A stretch of 64,000 nt of DNA from assembly GCF_003334785.1 (NCBI RefSeq), contig NZ_QOWV01000003.1. One strand, given 5' to 3'. Below the pieces are notes generated by a model. It was not told the DNA's origin. It saw only the letters and a program-made list of their open reading frames with translations, and ran no database searches. The stretch comes from Escherichia coli. Lineage in GTDB: Bacteria > Pseudomonadota > Gammaproteobacteria > Enterobacterales > Enterobacteriaceae. The translations under genes were made by a program, and so were the position numbers. Positions 3,999-62,939 of this stretch are shown one piece after another (the stretch's first letter is position 1; every line of letters begins with the position of its first letter).

Positions 3999-4859
3999 CT
4001 ATTTATTAACATTAAAAAGATGGCTTACGCTTTCGGCTAACGTTGTCGTTGGGCGGCCAATCAATTTGCTCAGCGTTTTGCTGTCATCAAACAGACCGCC
4101 TTTCGATGCGCCAACGTCAGAATCCGCCAGCATATCCGCCAGTCCGTCAGGCAGGCCAACGCTTTTCAGCGCCGCAGCGAAATCGGTTTCGCTCAGATTT
4201 TGATAGGTAACCTGTTTGCCGCTCTGTTTGGTCAGCTCTGCCGCTAACTGTGTCAACGTCCAGGCACTATCGCCCGCCAGCTCGTAAACCTTGCCTTCGT
4301 GACCGGCTTCGCTAATCACGCGTGCCGCAGCTGCCGCATAATCTGCCCGCGTTGCCGAGGCAATTTTGCCATCGCCCGCGGCACCGATAAATACGCCGTG
4401 CTCCAGTGCTGCCGGGGCGCTGGCGAGATAGTTTTCGGTGTACCAGCCGTTGCGCAGCAGGGTGTAAACGATGCCAGAATCAGCCAACATTTTCTCCGTC
4501 TCGATGTGCTCATCGGCGAGGCCGAGCGGAGATTTATCCGCGTGAAGCAGACTGGTATAAGCGATAAATTTCACGCCAGCCGTCTTTGCGGCATTAATAA
4601 CATTACGATGCTGCGGGGCACGTTGACCCACTTCGCTGGAAGAGATCAGCAGTAGTTTTTCCACTCCCTGAAGTGCAGATGTCAGTGCGGCTTCATCGCC
4701 GTAGTCAGCCTGACGCACGGTAATGCCTTGTGCTGTCAGTGCCTGGGCTTTTGCCGGATTACGAACGATAGCCACTATTTGGCTGGCAGGAACCGTTTTC
4801 ATCAAGGATTTAATAACATAGTGACCAAGTTGGCCAGTGGCACCAGTAATAGCGATCAT
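3999..4859 (-). CDS. qorB: NAD(P)H:quinone oxidoreductase (NmrA-like SDR)
   Basis: 286 aa; N-terminal Rossmann motif MIAITGATGQLG; synteny (ytfG). Confidence 0.9.
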   Translation of the reverse strand: MIAITGATGQLGHYVIKSLMKTVPASQIVAIVRNPAKAQALTAQGITVRQADYGDEAALTSALQGVEKLLLISSSEVGQRAPQHRNVINAAKTAGVKFIAYTSLLHADKSPLGLADEHIETEKMLADSGIVYTLLRNGWYTENYLASAPAALEHGVFIGAAGDGKIASATRADYAAAAARVISEAGHEGKVYELAGDSAWTLTQLAAELTKQSGKQVTYQNLSETDFAAALKSVGLPDGLADMLADSDVGASKGGLFDDSKTLSKLIGRPTTTLAESVSHLFNVNK

Positions 4860-5450: not shown

Positions 5451-7394
5451 TTACTTACTCAAATCCACCTGATAAATCGCAAACCCGATATCATCGGTCG
5501 CGACTTTATTCATCGGATATTGCCCTTTCTCTTTAATAAACGCCGCGGCTTTATCTGATGGAGAGGTTTCGAAACGGATATCCAGTTTCTTATCGCCAGC
5601 TATCGGTGCTAAACGCCAGTTGTTATCTGCCGCCGGGTGAATTTCCCCCGCACGTTTCGACTCATCAGCAATCCACGCTGCCAGCACCGAGCGGTTCTCA
5701 TCCGGTGAAGCAAAAGCGATATGGCTGTCGCCCGTACCGGCAAATTTGCCGCCGTAAGCGCGATAGTTATTGGTGGCAACCAGGAACATGGCGTTCGGAT
5801 CAATCGGCTTGCCATTAAAGGTCAGGTTCTTAATCCTTTCCGCATTGGCATTAACCATCTGGCACTCGCCGTCATAACGGGCAGGCTGGGTAACATCAAT
5901 CTGATAATTCACACCATCAATCACATCAAAGTTATAGGTGCGGAAACCATCCCAGTTGATGAGTGACTGTGGTTTCGTGTTGTCAGGATCAATCTGGTTA
6001 AACTGTCCGGCGGAGCACTCCAGCCACTCTTTCACCTCTTTACCGCTGGCTTTCACCACAATCAGCGTATTGGGGTAGAGATAAAGATCGGCGGCATTAC
6101 GGAAGGTCAACTGGCCTTTTTCCACCTCCACATAGCTTGCCGGATCATTTTTGCGACCACCAACTTTAAACGGTGCAGCAGCTGAAAGCACCGGCAGTTT
6201 TGCCAGATCCGGATCGCCCTGAATGTAATGCTCGACATACGCTTTTTGCGCGTTGTTCACCACCTGCACGGTCGGATCGTCCTGCACCAGCGCCAGATAG
6301 CTATACATATTGTCGGCGGATTTACCGATTGGCTTGCTGACGAACTGGCGTGTGGCATCGTGATCGGCTTTGAGTGTTTCTACCAGCTTGCTGTCTTCCG
6401 CCGCGAGGGATTTTTTATTGGCGATGTCGTAAATCGGCCGTGCTTCCGCTTTCGCCTGCGTCACCTGCCATTTACCGCTGTTATTACTGAGTTGTAAGTC
6501 GACCACCCCAAGATGATCGCCCCACATGCCCGGCATTACCGCCGGAACACCATTCAGCGTGCCTTTCGCGATATCAGCCCCTTCGATATCAGCAAAATCT
6601 TTACCTGGGAAAACGGCGTGAGCATGGCCAAACATAATGGCGTTAACGCCAGGAATTTCACTGAGGTAATAAACTGAGTTTTCCGCCATCACTTTATACG
6701 GATCGGCAGATAGCCCGGAATGCGCCAGAACGACAACGACATCGGCACCTTTCTCGCGCATTTCAGGCACGTATTTGCGCACGGTTTCGGTAATATCATT
6801 CACCGTCACTTTTCCGGATAAATTAGCTTTATCCCAGCCCATGATTTGCGGCGGCACGACGCCAATATAGCCAATCTTCAGCGTCTGTTTTTTTCCGTCT
6901 TTATCGACCACTTCGGTATCTTTAATTAAATACGGTGTAAACATTGGCTGTTTGGTTCTGGCGTCAATGACGTTGGCATTTACATAAGGGAATTTCGCTC
7001 CCGCCAACGCATTTTTCAGGTAATCCAGACCGTAGTTAAATTCATGATTGCCGAGTGTACCGACCGTATAATCCAGCGTATTCAGCGCCTTATAAACCGG
7101 ATGAACATCACCTGCTTTTAATCCTTTCGCCGATATGTAATCGGCCAGCGGACTCCCCTGAATCAAATCGCCGTTATCGACCAGTACGCTGTTTTTCACT
7201 TCATTGCGGGCATCGTTAATCAGGCTTGCCGTACGTACCAGTCCGAATTTTTCCGTGGCGGTGTCTTTGTAATAATCGAAATCCATCATGTTGCTATGCA
7301 GATCAGTGGTTTCCATGATACGTAGATCGACCGTCGCTGCATTCACACTGGCGGCAATCAGCGTGGCCAGGAGCGTTGCGCTAAACTTAATCAT
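5451..7394 (-). CDS. cpdB: periplasmic 2',3'-cyclic-nucleotide 2'-phosphodiesterase / 3'-nucleotidase
   Basis: 647 aa from the ATG at 7394 ([19 protein letters not shown] signal peptide; aaagga RBS 9 nt upstream); metallophosphatase motifs. Confidence 0.93.
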
Positions 7395-57541: not shown

Positions 57542-59044
57542 TTACCTTCTTCTCCCTCCCAGCAAACTCCCCAACATCCCGCGTACAATCTGATTCGTCA
57601 CCTGGCGAGCGGCGCTTTTGGCCATTGTCTGCACCACACCATCTTTCTTCCCGCCGCGTGGTCCGGTAGTGCCGAACAAAATATCCTTCAATCCACCAAG
57701 AATGCCGTCATCTACCGCTATCTCTTTCCCTTTCGCTGGAGGATTATTTTGCTGTTCAATACTCGCCTGTACGCCTTTTTGCAACATCTCATAGGCGGAT
57801 TCCCGGTCCACGTCATCCTCGTACTTGCCATACACCGGGGAGTGGTTAATCAAGCCATTGCGCTCATCTTCCGTCACCGGTCCCATCCGCGAACAAGGCG
57901 CAATCACCATCGCCCGTTCCACCACAGAAGGACTTCCTTTTGCATCGAGAAACGAGATTAACGCCTCGCCGGTCCCCAGTTCCTGGATTGCCTTTTCGGT
58001 ATCAAACGCCGGATTGGCCCGCATGGTTTGCGCCGCAGCTTTTACCGCTTTCTGATCTTTTGGCGTAAAAGCCCGCAAAGCGTGCTGAACGCGATTACCG
58101 AGCTGGCCGAGCACATTATCCGGAATATCAGACGGGTTTTGCGAAACGAACCAGACGCCCACGCCTTTTGAGCGAATAAGCCTTATCACCTGCTCAATCT
58201 TATCCAGCAGTACCTGCGGTGCATCGTTAAACAGCAGATGTGCTTCGTCGAAGAAAAACACCAGTTTTGGCTTCTCCAGATCGCCCGCTTCCGGCAATTG
58301 TTCATACAACTCTGAAATCATCCACAGCAGGCTGGCGGCGTACAGTTTCGGCATCTGATAAAGCTTCTCGGCGCTGAGGATATTAATAACGCCTTTACCG
58401 TTGGCATCGGTGCGCATCAAGTCTTTGATATCCAGCATCGGCTCACCAAAGAAGTGTGCTGCGCCTTGCTGTTCCAGCGACAACAGCCCGCGCTGGATGG
58501 CACCAACCGATGCGCTACTGATATTTCCGTACTGATTCTGGAAAGATTTGGCGTTATCGCCGATGTACTGGGTAATCGCCCGCAGATCTTTAAAGTCGAG
58601 CAGTAACAGCCCCTGATCGTCAGCAATTCGGAAGATGATATTCAGCACGCCAGATTGCACATCGTTGAGATTCAACAGCCGCGCCAGCAACAGCGGCCCC
58701 AGATCCGAAACCGTCGCCCGCACCGGATGGCCTTTCTCGCCAAAGATATCCCACACCACCACCGGATTAGCATGCGGTTGCCAGTCATTTACGCCGATAT
58801 TTTTAAGCCTTGCGAGCAGTTTTTCCGACGCCGTTCCTGCCTGCGCGATACCGGTCAGATCGCCTTTCACATCGGCCATAAACACCGGCACGCCGATTTC
58901 CGATAGAGACTCCGCCAGTTTTTGCAGCGTGACAGTTTTACCCGTCCCCGTTGCGCCAGTAATCAGCCCGTGACGGTTAGCCATTCCCGGCAGTAAAAAC
59001 AGTTCTGTGTCCGGCGTGCGGGCAATTAACAGGGGTTCGCTCAT
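57542..59044 (-). CDS. yjgR: DUF853-family P-loop NTPase
   Basis: 500 aa from the ATG at 59044 ([19 protein letters not shown]...); Walker A GATGTGKT. Confidence 0.9.
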
Positions 59045-59173
59045 GAGATTTCCTCCAGTTTCCTGCCTGGAGTATAGGCAACGGCTGTGCACTCTTCACC
59101 GCTAAATTCAGCAGATTGCGAGACGCCTTCCAAAGAGATTTAAGTGCCGGGCGACAGGCTCCCGGCAAAGGGA

Positions 59174-60193
59174 TCAGAAGTCGGCTTTCAGGACCACGCG
59201 GTAGCGCGCTTTACCATCGCGTACATGCTGGATGGCGTCGTTAATTTTCGACATCGGGAACAGTTCGGTGGTCGGCGCAACCTTGCTGCGGGCGGCAAAA
59301 CGCATCAGCTTACGCAGCTCATAAGGCGTGCCGGTAGCAGAACCAGAGATGCTGCGGTCGCCCGCAATTAACGTAAAGGCCGGAACAGACAGCGGCGTGA
59401 GAACCGCACCGACCGTATGGAAATTACCGCCATAGGTCAGCGCCTCAAAATAAGGCTGCCAGTCGAGGCTGACGTTCACAGTATTGATAATGAGATCAAA
59501 CTGCCCCGACAGGGCTTTCAGTGCCTGCGGATCGCGGCTATTCACCACTTTATCGGTACCCATCGCCAGTACTTCCTGCTCTTTCGCCGGATTAGAACTA
59601 AAGGCCGTCACCTCGCATCCCATTGCGTGCAGAAGTTTTATAGCGATATGCCCCAGCCCGCCAATACCAATTACCCCAACGCGGCTGGTAGCAGTGATAT
59701 GGTGCATCAACAGTGGTTTAAAGACCGTGATACCGCCGCACAACAGCGGCCCGGCGGACTCGATATCAATATTTTCTGGCAGTGGAATCACCCATTGCCA
59801 GTCCGCACGCAACTTCTCGGCAAAGCCACCGCGATTCATAATCGTCGGCACCGCACCTTGCTCGCAGTTGATCTGATTACCGCTAATACAGGTGTCGCAG
59901 TGACCACAGCTACGCGCCGTCCAGCCAATCCCGACACGCTGACCGACCTGCAAACCTTTATCCTGCGCGGCGCTCCCGAGTGCCACCACGCGCCCAATCA
60001 CCTCATGCCCGGCAACCAGCGGATATTGTGAAAATCCCCATTCGTTATCGATCATCGACAGATCGGAATGACAAATCCCGCAGTAATCCACCTGCACTTC
60101 AACATCTTGTGGCTTCAGCTCACCGGGATCGTACTCATAAACTTCCAGTTCGCCGCCCGCTTCTTTTGCGGCATAGCTTTTTATCATCGACAT
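59174..60193 (-). CDS. ahr: Zn-dependent NADPH aldehyde reductase (Ahr/YjgB)
   Basis: 339 aa from the ATG at 60193 ([26 protein letters not shown]...); MDR alcohol dehydrogenase motifs ([14 protein letters not shown]). Confidence 0.9.
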
Positions 60194-60388
60194 TTTTGGG
60201 TCCTTCTCTGGTGTTGTTTGGGAAGTGTAGAGCATGGCAGGGCGGGGTGCCTGGAGTGTGACAAAGGTTACATATCGCTGAGTGTAATGCTGAAAATTTC
60301 AGCACTTAGCGAGGTGGGTGCAAGCTGGCGCTTGCATGGTGGCGTGCGACAGGTATAATCCACAACGTTTTCCGCATACCTCTTCAGT

Positions 60389-60473
60389 GCCGAAGTGGCG
60401 AAATCGGTAGACGCAGTTGATTCAAAATCAACCGTAGAAATACGTGCCGGTTCGAGTCCGGCCTTCGGCACCA
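60389..60473 (+). tRNA. leuX: tRNA-Leu (anticodon CAA)
   Basis: 85-nt sequence gccgaagtggcg...ttcaaaa...ggttcgagtccggccttcggcacca with long variable arm, CAA anticodon loop and 3' CCA. Confidence 0.9.
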
Positions 60474-60563
60474 AGTCTTATCTAAGTCGTTGTTTTAAAA
60501 CAATTTAATCCATAATTTTGCTTGAAATCGCGTAGCCCCTCTTACAAAAGGGTATACGAGGCG

Positions 60564-62474
60564 ATGTCTCAGCGATATAAACTCTATCGTCGAACCAGCG
60601 GCATTTATGTTGTCCGCATTAGCATTCCCCAACGTTTTCGTCGATACGCAGGACAGTGTGAGATTCACACTTCAACAGGCACTCACGATCTTCATGAAGC
60701 AAAGCAGAAGTCCGCGCTCCTGTTGGCGGTCTGGTATCAGACCTTACAAGAGTATGAACAATTGGATTATCGAACTTTAAGTGACTGCGCCCCGCTGCTT
60801 GCTGGTGAGGGTATGATCTCGCTTTCTAACTTTGCTCAGTCAGTTGAGTTGCCTGTTGCGCAATTAATACAGGCGGTGATGAACCGTAATCTGCCCGTAT
60901 TCTGGCTGGCGACGGGGCAGGCTGGCTTTTATGTTGCAGCGCTCTCTGAGGCTGAGCTAGACCCGCTTGATGGCAGTTACGTTCTTAATTATGGCGAAGA
61001 GAAGGGTATCGAGGGGGTTGCTAAAGGCTATCTGCAACTCACTGCGCAACCAGCACATTTACGTAACATTATTAGCGACGGTTATTCAGAAGCTTCGGTG
61101 TTCAAAACTGCCGGAAGCGACGCTAAAGGCGGTTGGTTTTTCACCTCCGGTTGGCCGGTAATTAAACCCGATACGCTTTTGATCAATAAAGTCCATGCAG
61201 AAAGCCTAAGGCTTGATTGGCTGGCTAAGACCACGCCTCCAGTCGCTAGTGTTCATCCTACCGTGCCTCTTGCCGCTCCTGCCCCTACTATCGATAACGA
61301 GTATGTTAATCGAAAGTATTACACTAAGAATCTGTCGTGGTTATGCTCTGAATATCTAAAGCATCGGCGCAAGGGCAAGGTATCGGAGTCGGCTATAAGT
61401 GATATCCGTAACTATTTCAGCTTTATGATCGAAGCGATGGGTGACATTCAGTTGGAAGATTTTGATCGCGATTTCCTCCGGGCTTATGAGAGCAAACTGC
61501 GCACGATCCCAGCAAACCGTAATTTAGTCAAAGCTAAATATGGAGTGAAAACGCTGGATCAGTTAATCGCCAAAGCGGCAGAATGCGGCGATAAATTGAT
61601 GACTGAGGAATCCGTTAGGAAGTATATCAACGGCATTTATGGTGCAATGAAGTGGGCTGTTGCTGACGGTAAGCTACTGAAATCGCCATGCGAAAACTTT
61701 TTTCCATCCGATGATAAAGATGAGCGAGATCAGGATCACACTGACATATTTGAACCGCATGAAATTAAAGCGATTTTTTCGTTACCGTGGTTTGAGGCTG
61801 GAACTGTTGAACGCAATGCGCAAGGGCGATTCCATCAATATTGCCCGTTTAACTATTGGGCACCTTTGCTGGGCTTGATGACGGGGGCGCGAGTTAATGA
61901 AATCGCTCAGTTACTGCTGAGTGATGTTCTGGCAGACGACGGCGTCTATTATTTGAACCTTGAAAGCGATAATGAAAGCGGAAAGAAACTCAAAAATGCT
62001 AATGCTCGCCGCAAGATTCCGCTCCATTCAAAGCTGATTAGTCTCGGTTTCATCGACTACGTGAACGCCTTAAAAGATGCAGGGTATACCCGTCTCTTCC
62101 CGGAGCTTAAACCACATAAAACAAAAGGCTATGGTAGGCCAGTTTCCGCATGGTTCAATGAATCGTTGCTTGCGGGGCGGTTGAAACTCGAGAGGAACAG
62201 AAGCAAATCTTTCCATTCTTTTCGCCACTCAGTTTCGACTTTGCTCAAGGAGAAGGGCGTTAGCTCAGAATTACGAGCGCAGCTACTTGGGCATGTGCGC
62301 GGCGAAACTGAAACGGAAGTGCGATATAGCAAAGACCTCAAACCAATTCATATGATTGAAGTCGTGGAGAAAATTGATTTTTCGTTACCTGATATAGCGG
62401 AATTCAACATTCCTGACGGGCTGGATGCTGTCAGAGATGCGTTGCGAAGAAAGCGTGGCAAACAAACAGGTTGA
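60564..62474 (+). CDS. large tyrosine-type site-specific recombinase/integrase (~636 aa)
   Basis: ATG at 60564 with acgagg RBS; C-terminal catalytic motifs TGARVNE (Arg), HSFRHSVSTLL (HxxR), LLGHVRGETETEVRYSK (His, Tyr); long N-terminal and central extensions. Confidence 0.85.
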   Translation: MSQRYKLYRRTSGIYVVRISIPQRFRRYAGQCEIHTSTGTHDLHEAKQKSALLLAVWYQTLQEYEQLDYRTLSDCAPLLAGEGMISLSNFAQSVELPVAQLIQAVMNRNLPVFWLATGQAGFYVAALSEAELDPLDGSYVLNYGEEKGIEGVAKGYLQLTAQPAHLRNIISDGYSEASVFKTAGSDAKGGWFFTSGWPVIKPDTLLINKVHAESLRLDWLAKTTPPVASVHPTVPLAAPAPTIDNEYVNRKYYTKNLSWLCSEYLKHRRKGKVSESAISDIRNYFSFMIEAMGDIQLEDFDRDFLRAYESKLRTIPANRNLVKAKYGVKTLDQLIAKAAECGDKLMTEESVRKYINGIYGAMKWAVADGKLLKSPCENFFPSDDKDERDQDHTDIFEPHEIKAIFSLPWFEAGTVERNAQGRFHQYCPFNYWAPLLGLMTGARVNEIAQLLLSDVLADDGVYYLNLESDNESGKKLKNANARRKIPLHSKLISLGFIDYVNALKDAGYTRLFPELKPHKTKGYGRPVSAWFNESLLAGRLKLERNRSKSFHSFRHSVSTLLKEKGVSSELRAQLLGHVRGETETEVRYSKDLKPIHMIEVVEKIDFSLPDIAEFNIPDGLDAVRDALRRKRGKQTG

Positions 62475-62606
62475 ATCAGTTACTATTCAGTTGAGTGATG
62501 CTTGAATGCGCTGGGACGCTTCCTGGCGCATTTTTTATTAAGGGTGGTGGATTTCATAGTGCTGAATTTGGAGACGCTCAAAACACGTTTGGTGAAACTT
62601 GATGAC

Positions 62607-62939
62607 CTACGATTGCACCCGCAGCCCTTCTACGCTTTCTGATGGTAGATTTATCACTGTTTTAATGCTGGCCTCTATGTTGCCAATGATGTCTTCGCGC
62701 GGGCCGCTGCGCCAGTCATCGCTTGCGTAAAAAGCGTCGAGAACCGTAGTCATGCTTTTAGGGCTGACAAAGGCGCGAATCAGGTAATAGCAGTCCGGGT
62801 CATGCAGAGAGTTACCAAACGAAACAACATCGATCCCGTGGCGTTGGTGTAGGGGAACACTGATTTCCTGCATAATGGCGTGAAAAGCGGCACCGCTGCC
62901 TTTGCGTAAGGTGTATTGCAGTATCTCGACGGTTCTCAA
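62607..62939 (-). CDS. hypothetical small protein, possibly NIPSNAP-like (dimeric alpha+beta barrel); TTG start
   Basis: 110 aa ORF convergent with the integrase; ggag RBS 8 nt before TTG; pattern VEILQYTLRKGSGAAF...HGIDVVSFGNSLHDPDCYYLIRAF...FYASDDW judged by eye only. Confidence 0.35.
   Translation of the reverse strand: MRTVEILQYTLRKGSGAAFHAIMQEISVPLHQRHGIDVVSFGNSLHDPDCYYLIRAFVSPKSMTTVLDAFYASDDWRSGPREDIIGNIEASIKTVINLPSESVEGLRVQS

Follow-up and report, generated by a model that had tools for sequence, protein, structure and literature searches.

The window analysed here, a stretch of 64,000 nucleotides (nt) from an Escherichia coli genome (contig NZ_QOWV01000003.1), carries near its right-hand end the tRNA gene leuX, followed directly by int, the gene of an unusually large tyrosine integrase, and stops within the island to which this integrase belongs. 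Three features mark the left border of that island:

60389 to 60473, plus strand: leuX, tRNA-Leu(CAA), intact (ARAGORN; Rfam RF00005, 59.4 bits)
60449 to 60476: attL core, the 28-nt sequence GGTTCGAGTCCGGCCTTCGGCACCAAGT, made up of the T-stem/T-loop/acceptor 3' half, the CCA and 3 nt more
60564 (ATG) to 62474, plus strand: int, encoding a tyrosine integrase of 636 amino acids (aa)

Up to the CCA, the last 85 nt of leuX, which is the stretch that was compared, show no differences from the K-12 gene, and the 3'-terminal 25 nt belong to attL. The int open reading frame (ORF) is open from a TTG at 60522, and the ATG at 60564, with a GAGG 5 nt before it, yields a 636-aa protein (Int) ending at the stop at 62474; RefSeq places the start at the same ATG on identical DNA (WP_000083138.1, 'site-specific integrase'). 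A gap of 90 nt separates the end of the tRNA from this ATG, which falls on base 91, as an earlier, sequence-only reading of the window had stated. The same reading had recognised a tyrosine recombinase with an R...HxxR...Y signature, and this is confirmed by a Pfam Phage_integrase match at aa 436–582 (5.3e-9), the domain whose presence it had proposed as a check, by similarity to the PHROG_1 integrase family (3e-32) and by a catalytic set in canonical order (R443, K477, H551-x-x-R554, H577 and Y588). R443, K477, R554 and Y588 are invariant in an alignment with 24 homologues of identity down to 21%, and H551 and H577 make up the rest of the usual set. Pfam further detects DUF6538 at aa 7–63 (6.8e-8) and, weakly, a SAM-like core-binding domain at aa 259–376; NCBIfam returned merely sub-threshold XerA/XerD matches, and the sole match in a PDB sequence search was an archaeal XerA-like chain (E 0.13). 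Int is a member of the tyrosine recombinase/phage integrase superfamily (PF00589).

The far half of the island, including attR, lies beyond the window end and was read from identical or near-identical genomes, namely JKHS016, which matches the final 25 kb of the window at 100% identity, and BS74R-D, with 7 differences in 23,701 positions. In both genomes GGTTCGAGTCCGGCCTTCGGCACCAAGT, which comprises the last 25 nt of leuX and three more bases, recurs perfectly 7,314 bp downstream as attR; the next 16 kb hold no further copy, and 0 are expected by chance. The island of the window integrase is 7,314 bp long, and a perfect 28-bp repeat derived from the leuX 3' end marks its two boundaries, so that the direct repeat which the sequence-only reading had suggested looking for does exist, and the unit of 30–60 kb that it had envisaged does not. 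The corresponding empty site is found in the otherwise identical locus L003, where leuX is joined straight to the region with the AbiJ-NTD4 gene and the fec operon without the 7.3-kb unit, and where attB equals the sequence left of attL joined to that right of attR, exactly. Seven genes lie between the repeats: int; an ORF of 110 aa on the minus strand, followed by about 1 kb of gene-free DNA; a frameshifted DUF1643 gene; and then, up to attR, genes for a 186-aa serine recombinase (Res), a 281-aa DUF4062 protein, a 164-aa membrane protein and a 154-aa XRE-type helix-turn-helix (HTH) protein.

The window thus very probably ends in a compact, site-specific integrative element of 7.3 kb in the leuX 3' end, belonging to a family built on an Int-Res-HTH chassis. 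This reading is carried by direct observations, namely the repeats, the precise empty site, a right end that is joined to at least five different flanks downstream of leuX, the catalytic set and fold of Int, and a chassis that recurs across genera. Int would recombine the chromosomal tRNA-Leu(CAA) gene with a copy of its last 25 nt carried by the element, restoring an intact tRNA at attL and leaving a direct repeat of 25–28 nt at attR. The chassis itself would consist of Int, a small serine resolvase with a res-like site upstream and an XRE-type HTH regulator beside attR, and the slots between these genes would receive variable cassettes, often with candidate anti-phage genes. Transfer from cell to cell would depend on a helper, either a conjugative element or a transducing phage.

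The element is widespread within the species. The 3.7-kb segment that begins at leuX and ends with the window is present at ≥80% coverage in 583 of the 5,426 complete E. coli genomes searched (~11%), including Nissle 1917, ATCC 25922, ML35 and NCTC9087; the integrase gene does lie, as first proposed, at the left edge of strain-variable DNA, but this DNA is not strain-specific. An exact search of JGI metagenomes with the element right end plus core recovered 11 contigs with five different downstream sequences. One of these is the K-12-type flank, as in L004, and another is close to that of L3Cip3, in which a diverged (~93%) copy of the element precedes an integrase fragment disrupted by an insertion sequence (IS). 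Likewise, the right end is joined to K-12-type and other flanks in L004 and L005. Insertion into leuX has happened several times.

A further copy of the left end was noted on the IncY plasmid pCP53-92k (NZ_CP033095.1; L105, 6934–9537), which has 43 nt of the leuX 3' end, int (99.7% identical at the aa level) and the 110-aa ORF. This stretch adjoins a P4-like integrase gene and a tet(A) transposon, and the segment is a captured chromosomal fragment, not an insertion at a plasmid site.

A first AlphaFold 2 model of the whole Int protein, built with 24 sequences, was confident from about residue 250 to 636 and of low confidence for residues 67–245, which were resolved in a second model that drew on more diverse N-terminal sequences. 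The domains are as follows:

aa 7–63 (nt 60582–60752, plus strand): DUF6538 domain
about aa 83–135 (nt 60810–60968, plus strand): excisionase (Xis)/MerR-like winged helix
about aa 140–222 (plus strand): alpha/beta subdomain
aa 257–376 (nt 61332–61691, plus strand): core-binding domain
about aa 398–601 (nt 61755–62366, plus strand): catalytic domain

In Foldseek searches the top PDB matches of the model were full-length lambda Int (4e-7), Tn1549 Int and Brujita Int, with E-values of 4e-7 to 3e-6 for this group and a probability of 1.00 for lambda Int, Tn1549 Int, Cre and XerH. The extra ~160–200 aa form the excisionase/MerR-like winged helix and the small alpha/beta subdomain. Structural matches of the winged helix were pSK1 Par (score 7.5; 1.3 Å over 52 residues), RacA (6.8), a small-terminase DNA-binding domain (6.1) and three excisionases, TorI (5.5), Pukovnik Xis (5.0) and GIsul2 AlpA/Xis (4.7). 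As modelled, Int reads as an arm-binding-like domain followed by an Xis-like winged helix, an alpha/beta domain, a core-binding domain and a catalytic domain. It shares the catalytic hexad and the core-binding/catalytic fold with lambda Int, the Tn1549/Tn916 integrases and Brujita Int, and its N-terminal small beta-sheet-plus-helix domain, together with a motif repeated in both arms of the element, resembles arm-type binding. However, Int is almost twice as long as these lambda-type enzymes, its N-terminus belongs to Pfam DUF6538 and to no named arm-binding family, it carries the additional winged helix and alpha/beta subdomain, and its element has no separate Xis gene.

Int also differs from the P4-type integrases. 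P4-type enzymes have about 400 aa and combine Arm-DNA-bind_3 (DUF4102) with Phage_int_M, in contrast to the 636 aa and the DUF6538 domain of Int, and a BLASTP comparison with a P4-type integrase of that composition was not significant (E=0.055); the original description of Int as a non-P4-type enzyme is accurate. Target (the leuX 3' end), superfamily and position directly downstream of the tRNA gene are common to Int and to the K-12 KpLE2 IntB and PAI II536-type leuX integrases (PMC7545054). P4-type leuX islands span tens of kb, as opposed to 7.3 kb here, and in some genomes the 7.3-kb element sits upstream of P4-type remnants. Int is an unusual, large and uncharacterised enzyme, probably of the arm type.

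Both arms of the element hold candidate Int-binding sites. The left arm contains the following site, which was picked out by conservation:

60532 to 60559, plus strand: candidate arm-type Int-binding site GTAGCCCCTCTTACAAAAGGGTATACGA, overlapping the Shine-Dalgarno sequence of int

The site has a second copy at the other end of the element, 54 nt short of the attR core. The motif of about 28 nt (GTAGCCCCT-N3-ACAAAAGG-N3-TACGA) thus occurs once per arm, giving 2 matches in 43.7 kb against 0 expected. Its core is kept across genera at the DNA level (alignments A6/A7), and so is CAGCAGGTT, which precedes the attR core by 14 nt, and we infer that the motif copies and CAGCAGGTT are candidate arm sites. 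DUF6538 and the internal winged helix may bind the repeated arm motifs, and the winged helix may thereby replace a separate Xis.

Two further observations concern the att sites. The right arm holds another, degenerate version of the att core, GGTTTGATTCCGTCCAGCGGATCAAACT (68%), 116 nt before attR (L001 27348–27375); it was seen only in the E. coli and E. kobei elements and may represent an accessory site for Int or a remnant. In Yersinia L007 and L008 the tRNA copy at attL (9887) has a T in the T-loop (GGTTCGATTCC), and the attR copies (17235 and 18737, respectively) have a G at this position, as in E. coli; this one-base difference within the repeat may help to place the crossover point.

Homologues of Int with 65–96% identity occur in Enterobacter, Cronobacter, Yersinia, Pectobacterium and Pantoea, and Serratia is also among the genera of these relatives (72% in L016). 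In the sources they are named only 'site-specific integrase' or 'DUF6538 domain-containing protein'. Throughout this leuX clade (65–100% identity) int starts 90 nt past tRNA-Leu(CAA) in every locus read, and most loci possess a 25-nt repeat of the tRNA end 7.3–10 kb away; L014 and L015 have no such repeat within the locus. More distant clades use other targets, namely tRNA-Thr(CGT) in Phytobacter, Pseudocitrobacter and Mangrovibacter (46% identity to the window Int) and tRNA-Gly(CCC) or tRNA-Arg(CCG) in betaproteobacterial relatives (29–35%), the elements of which measure 5.5–7.8 kb. An integrase gene beside an intact tRNA gene, with a direct repeat of the tRNA 3' end at the far boundary, was seen in 9 elements besides that of the window.

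The order Int, variable genes, 186-aa resolvase, variable genes and ~154-aa HTH protein is kept in Enterobacter, Yersinia and Pantoea, with the chassis also present in Serratia relatives, and the Int-Res-HTH order also in a gut contig with merely 35% Int identity. A small serine recombinase is also encoded a few kb or less from many distant DUF6538 integrases. In loci with an Int of 42–46% identity, in which tRNA-Thr adjoins wherever a tRNA was found (none was found in L021 and L023), Res is 84–92% and the HTH protein ~90% identical to the E. coli proteins, which indicates that the int/att module has been exchanged on one chassis. No paper mentioning DUF6538 or describing a leuX integrase-resolvase islet turned up in the literature searched, to which this absence is limited. 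As far as checked, the element family and its architecture are undescribed, and the general type, an integrase islet in a tRNA gene at a known hotspot, is familiar.

The alignment of Res, the second recombinase of the chassis, to gamma-delta resolvase spans the whole protein (1.4e-25), as do those to Tn3 resolvase and Gin. Res combines an N-terminal catalytic domain with a C-terminal HTH, matches PHROG_125 (1.2e-55) and has homologues with precomputed Pfam Resolvase domains; Res is a small serine recombinase of the resolvase/invertase type. The 134 nt directly upstream of its gene are rich in positions that are invariant in 8 elements and contain three copies of TTTTCTGGCA, arranged as direct repeats, with no crossover dinucleotide identified. 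In position and size this region resembles the res site of the Tn3 family, and in Tn3-family transposons, too, res lies directly upstream of the gene. Unlike Tn3-family transposons, the element has no transposase and would move by its tyrosine integrase.

Pairwise blastn comparisons revealed recurrent sharp junctions at 2075, 2726–2728, 4021–4026, 4695–4706, 5631–5636 and 6974–6977 (element coordinates, position 1 being the first base of the attL core at window position 60449). The junction at 4021–4026, found in nine comparisons including one with an E. coli deletion variant, coincides with the outer edge of the 134-nt region. We hypothesise that Res may act on this res-like site to resolve tandem insertions, thereby reassorting the halves of the element. 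An invertible segment driven by the serine recombinase was also considered and dropped, the sole inverted repeat (L001 24853–24873 and 26240–26260; 21 nt, 81%) lying within coding sequence, with arms that are not co-conserved in the diverged L005 and L021; chance alone would give about 3 seeds of 12 nt per 10 kb.

Within the window, int is followed by these features:

62504 to 62533, plus strand: terminator-like hairpin and T-run 3' of int (consensus scan only)
62607 to 62939, minus strand: 110-aa ORF, the first cargo cassette ('NIPSNAP family protein' in RefSeq)
63945 to 64000, minus strand: 3' end of the frameshifted DUF1643 gene (from RefSeq on identical DNA), the remainder lying beyond the window

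The 110-aa ORF moves as a cassette in related elements. Its 'NIPSNAP' label was not reproduced by Pfam, NCBIfam, PHROG or PADLOC, none of which gave a match. An intact, 155-aa version of the DUF1643 protein is encoded in L005 (Pfam DUF1643, 5.8e-42). The slot between the resolvase and HTH genes is filled by the DUF4062 gene and the convergent gene of the 164-aa membrane protein (L001 24879–26279). The DUF4062 protein matches the PADLOC family PDC-S60 over the N-terminal 160 of 906 positions (5.8e-27), with a weak DUF4062 match in Pfam (3e-4), and the membrane protein falls in PHROG 20749 (1e-102), a family of unknown function, as does the DUF1643 protein in its own PHROG family. The two genes of this slot may form a two-gene defence candidate. 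The HTH protein of the element resembles the 'control proteins' of restriction-modification systems (PADLOC) and would repress int or cargo.

Related elements carry other PADLOC candidates (PDC-M18A/B, PDC-S49 and PDC-S06/AAA_13). All PADLOC matches of element cargo are to such candidate 'PDC' families, with no validated system model among them, and PHROG, NCBIfam and Pfam searches with all element proteins identified an integrase, an invertase/resolvase, an XRE regulator and unknowns only. The sequence-only reading had expected a novel system immediately downstream of int; what follows is a small cargo with candidate defence genes.

leuX is a classic island site (PMC7545054) and defence hotspot #37 of E. 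coli, which is described as more heavily occupied than any other (PMC12707154; Hochhauser et al. 2023, PMC10121019). Others have suggested that small serine recombinases, in a role that is unknown, can serve to mark defence genes (PMC12632615), and Res, like those enzymes, adjoins defence candidates.

Between the 110-aa ORF and the DUF1643 gene lies a further feature of the element:

63176 to 64000, continuing to about 64028 (L001 22877–23729): conserved stretch, gene-free but for the DUF1643 3' end

This block of ~850 nt, which runs into the DUF1643 3' end with its last ~80 nt (to 64028), shows higher conservation than the protein genes of the element. Between E. coli and Yersinia, block 63176–64028 is 89.6% identical, as against 73.9% for int and 81.8% for the resolvase block, and its gene-free part is 92.9% identical in an element with an Int of merely 42% identity. 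L021 and L005 have it too, and L006, L008 and L015 have parts of it; the first ~240 nt of the block are backbone common to several genera and to more members, and the block is absent from Pantoea and from some Yersinia and Enterobacter members. A structured non-coding RNA is unsupported in comparisons of few diverged sequences: Rfam gave no match on either strand at E<=1, RNAalifold covariation was ~0 or unfavourable on both strands, and minimum free energy z-scores of -2.1 and -1.1 indicate ordinary folding energy. Mimicry of the transfer origin (oriT) or cos site of known plasmids or phages was also rejected, as only the DUF1643 3' end matched among 72,556 plasmids and nothing among 50,697 phage records. 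The block may act as a site on the DNA, for instance an island-type oriT, or it may be an undescribed transcript or a recently exchanged module.

The first of these options corresponds to a relaxase-less mobilisable island ('iOriT'), in which the gene-free block would serve as oriT for a co-resident integrative and conjugative element or plasmid. This is compatible with an Int-driven element and possible, if on balance unlikely. It would fit the conservation of the block, which exceeds that of the genes, together with the lack of support for a structured RNA, and a 2026 preprint (bioRxiv 10.64898/2026.01.13.699239) describes more than 1,500 islands that lack a relaxase and whose oriTs, in 52 new families, are island-specific. 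On the other hand, no nick-site motif was identified, nothing beyond the DUF1643 3' end is similar to the plasmids searched, and family members such as those of Pantoea lack the block altogether.

Several results weigh against an element that is still mobile. The predicted attP junction (GAGACTTA-core-AGTCTTATC, right end to left end) was found 0 times in the JGI metagenomes, IMG/VR and the 5,426 complete E. coli genomes, in 680 of which at least one element end is present, and the same collections contained no tandem arrays or tandem junctions of the element. The excised circle and tandem arrays were dropped as candidates on this basis; assemblies are a weak assay for a rare excised circle. 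The seven element genes include none for a relaxase, secretion, replication, packaging or phage structure, and no separate gene for Xis or another recombination directionality factor exists in the 7.3 kb. Moreover, the DUF1643 cassette of the E. coli copy is a pseudogene, a sign of some decay, the near-identical copies in many strains could instead reflect homologous recombination of flanking core genes, and both the arm sites and the res-like site are put forward from conservation alone.

An alternative reading is an immobile relic, that is, an intact but inactive integrase spread by descent and by homologous recombination of the yjgR-fim region, and the ~100% identity of copies in many strains, the frameshift in DUF1643 and the missing excisionase gene and attP or tandem junctions would all suit it. 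We nevertheless think it rather improbable, because a full-length ORF with an invariant catalytic set has been kept in hundreds of genomes and across genera, arm and core DNA are conserved, the right end meets at least five flanks and a ~93% diverged copy occupies the same site in other E. coli.

A phage satellite (P4-like, a phage-inducible chromosomal island or similar) dependent on a helper phage for packaging would likewise be small, inserted in a tRNA gene and equipped with defence-like cargo, and both the membrane protein and the DUF1643 protein belong to PHROG families of unknown function. We regard this as very unlikely. Searches of all element proteins against PHROGs, NCBIfam and Pfam detected no primase/replicase, AlpA, capsid-redirecting, terminase or head genes, the 50,697 phage records contain no nucleotide match, and the junction is not in IMG/VR. 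At 7.3 kb the element is also, to our knowledge, smaller than known phage satellites. A homologous 9.7-kb human gut contig deposited as 'UNVERIFIED Bacteriophage sp.' (MT836560.1, L106) could be taken to favour a satellite. It encodes Int (35% identity), cargo, Res, cargo and the HTH protein with a HicB-like gene at the end, its ORF list holds no tRNA and no phage structural genes, and it is probably a chromosomal islet mislabelled as a phage.

Past attR the genomes identical to the window continue with an AbiJ-NTD4 protein gene, IS30/IS3 debris (which in JKHS016 includes a group II intron), and the fec operon, ykiE and IS1F in K-12 order, followed by CP4-like remnants and then nanM, nanC and fimB; the whole leuX variable region measures ~33 kb. 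This DNA is an older, integrase-less composite leuX region, whose fec-IS1 segment is common to K-12 KpLE2. The AbiJ-NTD4 gene stands directly after leuX in the empty-site genome and therefore belongs to the older island. About 0.5 kb past attR (L001 28022–28846), its product matches the PADLOC candidate family PDC-S32 (5.6e-104), and a 190-aa ORF without a match comes after it.

Given that attR lies 7.3 kb from attL, that L003 preserves the empty site, that no leuX repeat recurs within 16 kb and that the 7.3-kb unit precedes unrelated downstream DNA in other genomes, it is extremely unlikely that the integrase marks the left edge of a large (30–60 kb), strain-specific island or prophage of the KpLE2/P4 kind with the entire leuX region as its cargo, despite the ~33 kb of variable DNA with fec, IS elements and CP4-like remnants as in K-12 KpLE2.

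The comparison with K-12 on the other side of leuX concerns a different polymorphism. MG1655 has the order yjgR-idnR-idnT-idnO-idnD-idnK-ahr-leuX, followed by a 1191-nt intB pseudogene of the KpLE2/PR-Y element; the sequence-only reading was right to place a P4-like intB here in K-12. In the window, yjgR (57542–59092) adjoins ahr (59174–60235) with 81 nt between them. The absence of the idn (L-idonate) operon is real, but it lies on the other side of ahr and is not part of the island; idn is also missing between yjgR and ahr in L001, L003, L004, L005 and L093, that is, in all other E. coli loci examined. Still further upstream, RefSeq annotates two pseudogenes in the near-identical L001 and L093, a frameshifted hypothetical gene after tabA (window ~44548–46175 by an offset of +40299) and yjgN with an internal stop (~48561–49757 by the same offset).

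The leuX island of this strain is thus small and common and not large and strain-specific, and its cargo is modest and consists of candidates only. 'Integrase-only' islands of unknown mobility have been pointed out at E. coli hotspots (PMC10121019), and the present family resembles them in having recombinases as its sole mobility genes and variable cargo that includes defence candidates (PMC10121019, PMC12707154). It differs in being delimited by exact att sites, with an Int-Res-HTH chassis, recurrent junctions and tRNA-switching sister clades, and in a cargo of PADLOC candidates (PDC) without validated systems. The family provides a very small and sharply bounded model, with 7.3 kb, seven genes and exact att sites, in strains that are easy to handle, such as Nissle 1917, ATCC 25922 and ML35; among its natural variants, swapped cassettes and a changed tRNA target are already seen. 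It also draws attention to small uncharacterised cassettes (DUF4062 with the membrane protein, DUF1643 and the 110-aa ORF) and to the conserved gene-free block.

The means by which recombinase-only islands travel and swap their cargo are acknowledged to be an open question (PMC10121019; bioRxiv 2026.01.13.699239). Speculatively, and with considerable doubt on our part, the elements could be minimal shuttles that bring cargo to tRNA hotspots, with an excisionase-like, DNA-bending domain built into Int in place of a separate Xis, a Res/res system that reassorts the element halves and the gene-free block as island oriT. If true, a left half (att-int-cargo) and a right half (res-cargo-HTH) would reassort through transient tandem insertions that are resolved, the same cargo chassis would have been moved between tRNA-Leu and tRNA-Thr, and the family would offer a mechanism for the movement and cargo shuffling of 'integrase-only' defence islets.

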